From Escherichia coli (GTDB lineage Bacteria; Pseudomonadota; Gammaproteobacteria; Enterobacterales; Enterobacteriaceae): 64,000 nt of DNA. Location: the NCBI RefSeq assembly GCF_017348835.2, contig NZ_CP072317.1, one strand, 5' to 3'. Both the position numbers and the translations under genes were made by a program. The notes under the pieces were generated by a model that had not been told where the DNA came from, searched no databases, and worked only from the letters and a program-made list of their open reading frames with translations. This document shows, piece by piece, positions 51,347 to 52,166 of the stretch (position 1 is the first letter of the stretch; each line of letters begins with the position of its first letter).

Positions 51347-52166
51347 GGCACTGTTGCAAATAGTCGGTGGTGATAAACTTATCATCCCCTTTTGCTGATG
51401 GAGCTGCACATGAACCCATTCAAAGGCCGGCATTTTCAGCGTGACATCATTCTGTGGGCCGTACGCTGGTACTGCAAATACGGCATCAGTTACCGTGAGC
51501 TGCAGGAGATGCTGGCTGAACGCGGAGTGAATGTCGATCACTCCACGATTTACCGCTGGGTTCAGCGTTATGCGCCTGAAATGGAAAAACGGCTGCGCTG
51601 GTACTGGCGTAACCCTTCCGATCTTTGCCCGTGGCACATGGATGAAACCTACGTGAAGGTCAATGGCCGCTGGGCGTATCTGTACCGGGCCGTCGACAGC
51701 CGGGGCCGCACTGTCGATTTTTATCTCTCCTCCCGTCGTAACAGCAAAGCTGCATACCGGTTTCTGGGTAAAATCCTCAACAACGTGAAGAAGTGGCAGA
51801 TCCCACGATTCATCAACACGGATAAAGCGCCCGCCTATGGTCGCGCGCTTGCTCTGCTCAAACGCGAAGGCCGGTGCCCGTCTGACGTTGAACACCGACA
51901 GATTAAGTACCGGAACAACGTGATTGAATGCGATCATGGCAAACTGAAACGGATAATCAACGCCACGCTGGGATTTAAATCCATGAAGACGGCTTACGCC
52001 ACCATCAAAGGTATTGAGGTGATGCGTGCACTACGCAAAGGCCAGGCCTCAGCATTTTATTATGGTGATCCCCTGGGCGAAATGCGCCTGGTAAGCAGAG
52101 TTTTTGAAATGTAAGGCCTTTGAATAAGACAAAAGGCTGCCTCATCGCTAACTTTGCAACAGTGCC
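51347..52166 (+). mobile_element. IS26 copy 1 (820 bp)
   Basis: Terminal repeats GGCACTGTTGCAAA at both ends. Confidence 0.95.
51410..52114 (+). CDS. tnpA: IS26 transposase Tnp26, Asn in the KLKRII(N)ATLGFK motif
   Basis: 234 aa from MNPFKG; differs from copies 2 and 3 (Gly) at this one residue. Confidence 0.95.

Follow-up and report, generated by a model that had tools for sequence, protein, structure and literature searches.

Three IS26 Copies in the Resistance Island, One with a Distinct Allele

The 64,000-nucleotide stretch of Escherichia coli DNA analyzed here (contig NZ_CP072317.1 of assembly GCF_017348835.2; hereafter the window) carries a resistance island that includes blaCTX-M-3 and erm(B) together with three copies of the insertion sequence (IS) IS26, numbered 1 to 3 from left to right (table 1). 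The 14-bp terminal repeat of IS26, GGCACTGTTGCAAA, is found at six sites in the window, where none would be expected by chance, and these six sites delimit three complete copies of 820 bp each. Copies 2 and 3 show no difference across this full length, whereas copy 1 departs from both of them at three bases only (817 of 820 identical). Two of these three bases, a change of GG to AA at IS positions 613–614 (window 51959–51960), replace Gly by Asn at residue 184 of the transposase (G184N), and the remaining one is silent, so that uninterrupted identity with the standard copies extends over 458 bp at the left end of the element and 206 bp at its right end. Positions 51410–52114 are exactly the 234-codon tnp26 open reading frame (ORF) of copy 1 plus its stop. 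The first-pass annotation, which was made from the letters alone, had claimed that one of three IS26 copies has Asn in place of Gly; this is borne out by the codons (AAC in copy 1, GGC in the other two), and the peptides that it quoted for copies 1, 2, and 3 were read correctly, the standard copies having KLKRIIGATLGFK around residue 184.

This combination of bases corresponds to a variant that already bears a name. IS26-v1 (formerly IS15Δ1), which ISfinder lists as IS15DI, is separated from IS26 by three nucleotide differences, of which two produce the G184N substitution within the catalytic domain of Tnp26, its transposase (PMC9412624, PMC6807381, PMC7986276). Copy 1 is likewise an 820-bp element with perfect 14-bp terminal inverted repeats and a single ORF for a 234-aa IS6-family DDE transposase, which matches the NCBIfam model NF033587 at 278 bits (cutoff 125) as well as Pfam PF13610, and it lies exactly three nucleotides away from IS26, two of them accounting for G184N, when the standard copies of the window serve as the reference. 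Judged by its sequence, copy 1 is thereby IS26-v1 in every feature examined, and nothing weighs against this identification. The variant was reportedly described by Pong, Harmer, Ataide, and Hall in 2019, and its nomenclature is said to come from Harmer, Pong, and Hall in 2021. With IS26-v1, copy 1 shares the 820 bp, the terminal repeats, and the same three bases, including GGC to AAC; no difference from it was detected, and the context alone is specific, with a remnant of IS1 (ΔIS1) on the left and a truncated ISEcp1 (ΔISEcp1) followed by blaCTX-M-3 on the right. From standard IS26, which is the same element moving by the same mechanism (cointegrates formed by copy-in or by the targeted conservative reaction) and has 817 of 820 bases in common with it, copy 1 is set apart by Asn instead of Gly at residue 184, the Gly form having the lower cointegration frequency in the literature. 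Overall, the best explanation, and in our view a very probable one, is that copy 1 is IS26-v1, a known natural allele, which bounds on the left the resistance island carried by a pHK01-like IncFII plasmid.

As a matter of fact, the literature already covers the variant along with its effect, abundance, and position upstream of blaCTX-M. Truncation of ISEcp1 by IS26-v1 upstream of blaCTX-M genes has been published (PMC9601100), and in plasmids of Klebsiella, Escherichia, and Salmonella, 1,385 IS26-v1 transposase sequences were counted against 6,266 of IS26, the two often sharing a replicon and the earliest isolate with the variant being dated to 1990 (PMC11137137).

Each IS26 copy of the window also contains a long antisense ORF of 212–226 aa, at 51299–51937 (- strand), 55163–55843 (+ strand), and 57500–58141 (- strand). 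In the antisense ORF of copy 1, which is a purely mechanical prediction, the silent base of IS26-v1 at IS position 459 amounts to an Arg to Trp change.

Recurrence of the Allele in Related Plasmids

The closest relatives of the window are pHK01-like IncFII plasmids of about 65–80 kb, from which the stretches designated L001–L008 were compared, all of them retrieved with a query that contained the intact left module of the island. The IS26 located between ΔIS1 and ΔISEcp1-blaCTX-M carries G184N in L001, L002, L003, L006, L007, and L008, and all three bases of IS26-v1 are present in five of these six records (L001, L002, L003, L006, and L007). The remaining IS26 copies in the six records are all standard except two, both in L008.

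At the scale of plasmid records in general, the junction IS26/ΔISEcp1/blaCTX-M of the window is found in at least 337 records. BLAST identity bands were too coarse for allele counts, everything being at or above 99%, so that queries with the natural junction and with the codon bases edited to GG were used instead. Among the best 60 records listed for the GG-edited query, 22 were identical at 100%, one at 99.9%, and the rest at 99.7%, which is the value expected for the IS26-v1 bases. On these junction searches, whose counts are lower bounds and whose proportions are approximate, IS26-v1 seems to outnumber the standard allele at this junction, by roughly nine to one.

These comparisons bear directly on two trivial explanations of the Asn codon, a sequencing or base-calling error in one copy and the assignment of a real allele to the wrong IS26 copy, both of which were rejected on comparison with the related records. 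A sequencing error at this codon had been named in the first-pass annotation as an observation that could undo its claim. Beyond the general possibility of such errors, nothing speaks for it, and it would have to produce precisely the pattern of the named variant, two adjacent changes with a linked silent one as the third, with the same three bases recurring at the same place in five independent assemblies and RefSeq giving the proteins of the two alleles distinct accessions (WP_001067858.1 and WP_001067855.1). Because copy 1 has the canonical linked silent change and six independent plasmid records show G184N in the same place, an error of this kind is excluded for practical purposes, its probability being vanishingly small. 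As for the assembly or polishing of 820-bp repeats, variants can be misassigned in repeats longer than short reads, and the allele might on this account have been placed on the wrong copy; the occurrence of G184N next to ΔISEcp1-blaCTX-M in the same six records, as well as its being the majority state at this junction, makes this explanation highly improbable too, if slightly less so than the former.

Is IS26-v1 the Most Active End of the Island?

IS26 moves by cointegrate formation alone, through either replicative copy-in or a conservative reaction targeted at another IS26 (PMC6807381, PMC8477213), and copy-in leaves an 8-bp duplication according to the literature. The first-pass annotation had linked a substitution at this position to higher IS26 activity, and rightly so: four papers credit Pong et al. 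2019 with the finding that G184N raises cointegrate formation (PMC8477213, PMC9019673, PMC11137137, PMC12540391). It had further proposed that the copy with Asn may be the most active end of the island. In this regard, a preference of Tnp26 for binding in cis, to an end of its own IS, has been proposed, and 117 bp of identity are enough for the targeted reaction (PMC7885326). Since the 458 and 206 bp shared with the standard copies both exceed this length, copy 1 would be able to react with them at either end, and loading of the transposase in cis would make it intrinsically the most reactive of the three IS copies. Given this cis preference, a most active end at copy 1 is a plausible and reasonable expectation.

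There are also published cases of mixed alleles in which G184N copies were seen acting (PMC9602291, PMC12540391). The one closest to the present arrangement is PTn6020 of Acinetobacter baumannii (PMC9602291), which has IS26-v1-Δv2 on one side and IS26 on the other, in direct orientation as are copies 1 and 3, and in which the marker bases allowed events to be traced, several amplifications having been begun by the v1-type copy. PTn6020 differs from the window in its host, in its cargo, and in having no internal inverted IS26, and the window itself holds no event that can be traced in this way.

Several observations weigh against extending the identification of copy 1 to a particular activity of this copy in the plasmid studied here. 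Copy 1 is the only IS26-v1 in the window, with no extra copy of the variant being found there. In addition, none of the six 8-bp flanks of the three IS26 copies match one another as target-site duplications, whether directly or as reverse complements; for this reason, every copy has undergone at least one further event (an adjacent deletion, recombination, or a conservative reaction) after its insertion, and none of them can be read as a simple insertion of recent date. The arrangement ΔIS1/IS26(G184N)/ΔISEcp1-blaCTX-M/wbuC/ΔblaTEM/inverted IS26 is constant in the six relatives, and their variable cargo (ΔintI1, fosA3, rmtB-blaTEM-1, mph(A), erm(B), and aph(3')-IIa) lies entirely to the right of standard copy 2. 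The junction between copy 2 and the erm(B) segment is, moreover, the only island junction that is not contiguous in any of the best-matching plasmid records, and on this ground the newest-looking junction belongs to a standard copy. The allele is not tied to its site either: the IS26 of L004 (11112–11931), flanked by the same ΔIS1 and ΔISEcp1-blaCTX-M, is standard throughout, and L008 has two copies (4848–5667 and 12095–12914) of a G184N allele that lacks the silent base at IS position 459, one of them at the ΔIS1/ΔISEcp1-blaCTX-M site. Within a set of relatives that is biased, as the query contained the intact left module, the sequence comparison yields no sign of copy 1 having been more active in this plasmid lineage.

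The L008 allele deserves a word of its own, as it has the same substitution and the same position between ΔIS1 and ΔISEcp1 as copy 1 and differs from it in having the standard base, G, at IS position 459. Recombination between IS26-v1 and standard IS26 could account for it, and it is possibly the allele named IS26-v3, which also carries G184N (PMC12540391). Going by the sequences, recombination between copies or their conservative exchange would give alleles like those of L004 and L008, and IS26 alleles have evidently been reshuffled from one copy to another.

This leads to an alternative view of the island, according to which the G184N copy is a passive lineage marker inherited with its module, and the standard copies and homologous recombination between IS26 copies did the shaping. 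The constancy of the left module and the variability of the cargo to the right of copy 2 among the six relatives speak for it, and so do the allele swaps at the same junctions in L004 and L008 and the lack of a target-site duplication at any copy. The erm(B) segment points in the same direction, being 100% identical to that of L004–L006 but inverted in the window and differently truncated beside standard copy 2, where it stops 74 bp further in than in L005; recombination inside the IS copies could account for the swapping of a segment flanked by two inverted IS26. Against it stands the same bias toward relatives with an intact left module, owing to which deletions made by copy 1 in blaCTX-M or in the adjacent partition genes would go unseen. 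The module is, furthermore, present in many plasmids and genera, and the left junction ΔIS1/IS26 (query window 51150–51550) is found in at least 758 plasmid records versus at least 337 for the right junction. What adjoins this IS on the right has therefore varied in the wider population, and the presence of IS26 at this IS1 site predates the attached blaCTX-M module or is more widespread than it. G184N copies have also been seen moving in the published mixed-allele genomes mentioned above. Taking both sides together, we regard a passive marker as a serious contender whose chances fall slightly short of even, and this reading bears on the activity of copy 1 in the lineage, the identification of this copy as IS26-v1 being common to both.

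Residue 184 in the IS6 Family

The substitution had been placed by the first-pass annotation in a conserved motif, which is accurate for some of the surrounding residues, K180 being invariant, F189 nearly invariant, and G188 common, but not for residue 184 itself, which is variable. In an alignment with 23 diverse relatives, D78, D138, E173, and K180 are invariant. Position 184 was also compared in 66 relatives with less than 90% identity, which came from a search of 1.84 billion representative proteins; Arg occupies the aligned position in 39 of them, Lys in 11, Gly in 4, and Asn in 3, several of these relatives being members of one subfamily and the counts hence not independent. Position 184 is thus, as far as these alignments tell, not conserved in the family, and the Gly of IS26 is an unusual state.

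In an AlphaFold2 model of the transposase (mean predicted local distance difference test [pLDDT] of 91.8), residue 184 ends the helix 170–184, which bears the catalytic E173, and is followed by a loop. A fold search with this model returned ISCth4 transposase-DNA complexes as the top structural matches, retroviral integrases being matched as well, and a sequence search of solved structures gave weak integrase-core matches only and no IS6-family structure. The ISCth4 matches fit an earlier suggestion that the region around residue 184 touches the terminal repeat and that G184N may improve end binding (PMC8477213). Because most relatives have Arg or Lys there, position 184 probably faces the terminal-repeat DNA, and Asn, with a hydrogen-bonding side chain in place of the side-chain-less Gly, would then favor stronger end binding or synapsis.

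On this basis, one may speculate that Gly184 is an unusual and possibly attenuating state of a helix-capping position, that Asn184 partly restores a contact with the terminal repeat, and that the IS26-v1 copy is the preferred initiator of cointegrates and translocatable units in islands of mixed alleles. We hold this proposal to be rather unlikely as a whole; if it were true, G184R or G184K would be even more active than IS26-v1.

Structure of the Island and Plasmid Backbone

The features of the island and of the surrounding backbone are collected in table 1. The exact end of the IS1 3' remnant was placed by the IS1 terminal repeat, and the sequence between copy 1 and blaCTX-M-3 is presumed to be ISEcp1 from the right-end sequence of that element. 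In other plasmid records that share the junction, ISEcp1 is annotated over the matching upstream sequence. The product of blaCTX-M-3 differs from CTX-M-15 by a single residue, position 242 of the precursor being Asp instead of Gly.

In the most similar plasmids, an otherwise nearly identical module contains CTX-M-15 or CTX-M-55 instead, the comparison with L001 showing two mismatches over 9,754 bp. From this and the junction searches, ΔIS1/IS26-v1/ΔISEcp1-blaCTX-M-3/15/55-wbuC-ΔblaTEM/IS26 is, at the sequence level, a conserved and widely spread module. No record with an identical island was found, none in either of the collections searched covering more than 85% of positions 49000–61000 of the window.

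Table 1. Features of the Resistance Island and Backbone in the 64-kb Window, with the Basis of Each Assignment.
Feature	Position	Strand	Basis or remark
AS-traI (Rfam match)	1348-1424
AS-traG (Rfam match)	10815-10900
FinP/traJ 5'UTR (Rfam match)	30899-31008
sok (Rfam match)	35003-35179
AS-pc01 (Rfam match)	42509-42610
IS1 3'-end remnant, 83 bp, adjoining the left end of IS26-v1	51264..51346	-	Same sequence annotated as incomplete IS1 transposase in L001-L003
IS26-v1 (IS15Δ1), copy 1	51347..52166	+	Complete at 820 bp, with perfect 14-bp terminal inverted repeats; bounds the island on the left
tnp26 ORF of copy 1, 234 aa, Tnp26-G184N	51410..52114	+	IS6-family DDE transposase (D78, D138, E173)
Silent change in copy 1, Pro132 CCG to CCA	51805 (IS position 459)	+	Third IS26-v1 marker base
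Codon 184 of copy 1, AAC (Asn), versus GGC (Gly) in the standard copies	51959..51961	+	Alignment of the copies in the window
Truncated ISEcp1 remnant and spacer upstream of blaCTX-M, adjoining the right end of IS26-v1	52167..52535	+	Sequence
blaCTX-M-3	52536..53411	+	CTX-M-3 annotated in L002
wbuC-family cupin gene (orf477)	53458..53934	-	TIGR04366; L001 annotation
blaTEM, 5'-truncated, cut by IS26 copy 2	54193..54930	-	Profile positions 43-286 of 286; L001 annotation
IS26 copy 2, standard allele (G184)	54934..55753	-	Inverted relative to copy 1
erm(B) segment, 1,797 bp, between inverted standard copies 2 and 3	55754..57550	-	NF012220, 565 bits
erm(B) gene	56521-57258	-	NF012220
IS26 copy 3, standard allele (G184)	57551..58370	+	Oriented as copy 1; bounds the IS26-flanked region on the right
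Tn3-family (Tn2-type) tnpA 3' fragment, adjoining the right end of copy 3	58371..58929	+	NF033527 positions 791-954 of 954; L001 annotation
IS1 5' part (insA and start of insB)	58959..59380	-	NF033558; L001 annotation mapped by alignment
CopA (Rfam match)	62847-62937

The region from copy 1 to copy 3, both on the + strand and so in direct orientation, contains blaCTX-M-3 and erm(B), with copy 2 inverted inside, which is the arrangement of a pseudo-compound transposon. The IS26-bounded island sits within a split IS1, the middle of which is gone, and the IS1 5' part is followed on its right by pemIK and then by the IncFII repA. A 201-aa ORF at 58324–58929 (+ strand) starts in the right end of copy 3 and runs into the truncated tnpA, as a fusion made by the junction.

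Rfam matches were obtained for FinP/traJ 5'UTR, sok, AS-pc01 (antisense to pHK01_035), CopA, AS-traI, and AS-traG, and because of these matches the backbone can be assigned to a pHK01-like IncFII conjugative plasmid.

Significance

Copy 1 is a real instance of a known variant, inherited with a widespread blaCTX-M module, ordinary in its context, and already covered by the literature, and it brings nothing biologically new in itself. The small additions made here are that position 184 is mostly Arg or Lys in the family and caps the E173 helix, and that the visible variation of this plasmid lineage is located at the standard copies. From a broader perspective, the resistance islands of Gram-negative bacteria are assembled mainly by IS26, whose G184N form is a documented, more active one. 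Knowing which copy is IS26-v1 aids annotation, in which the variant is often mislabelled as IS15DI or as plain IS26, and the marker bases of IS26-v1 let individual IS copies be followed through rearrangements.
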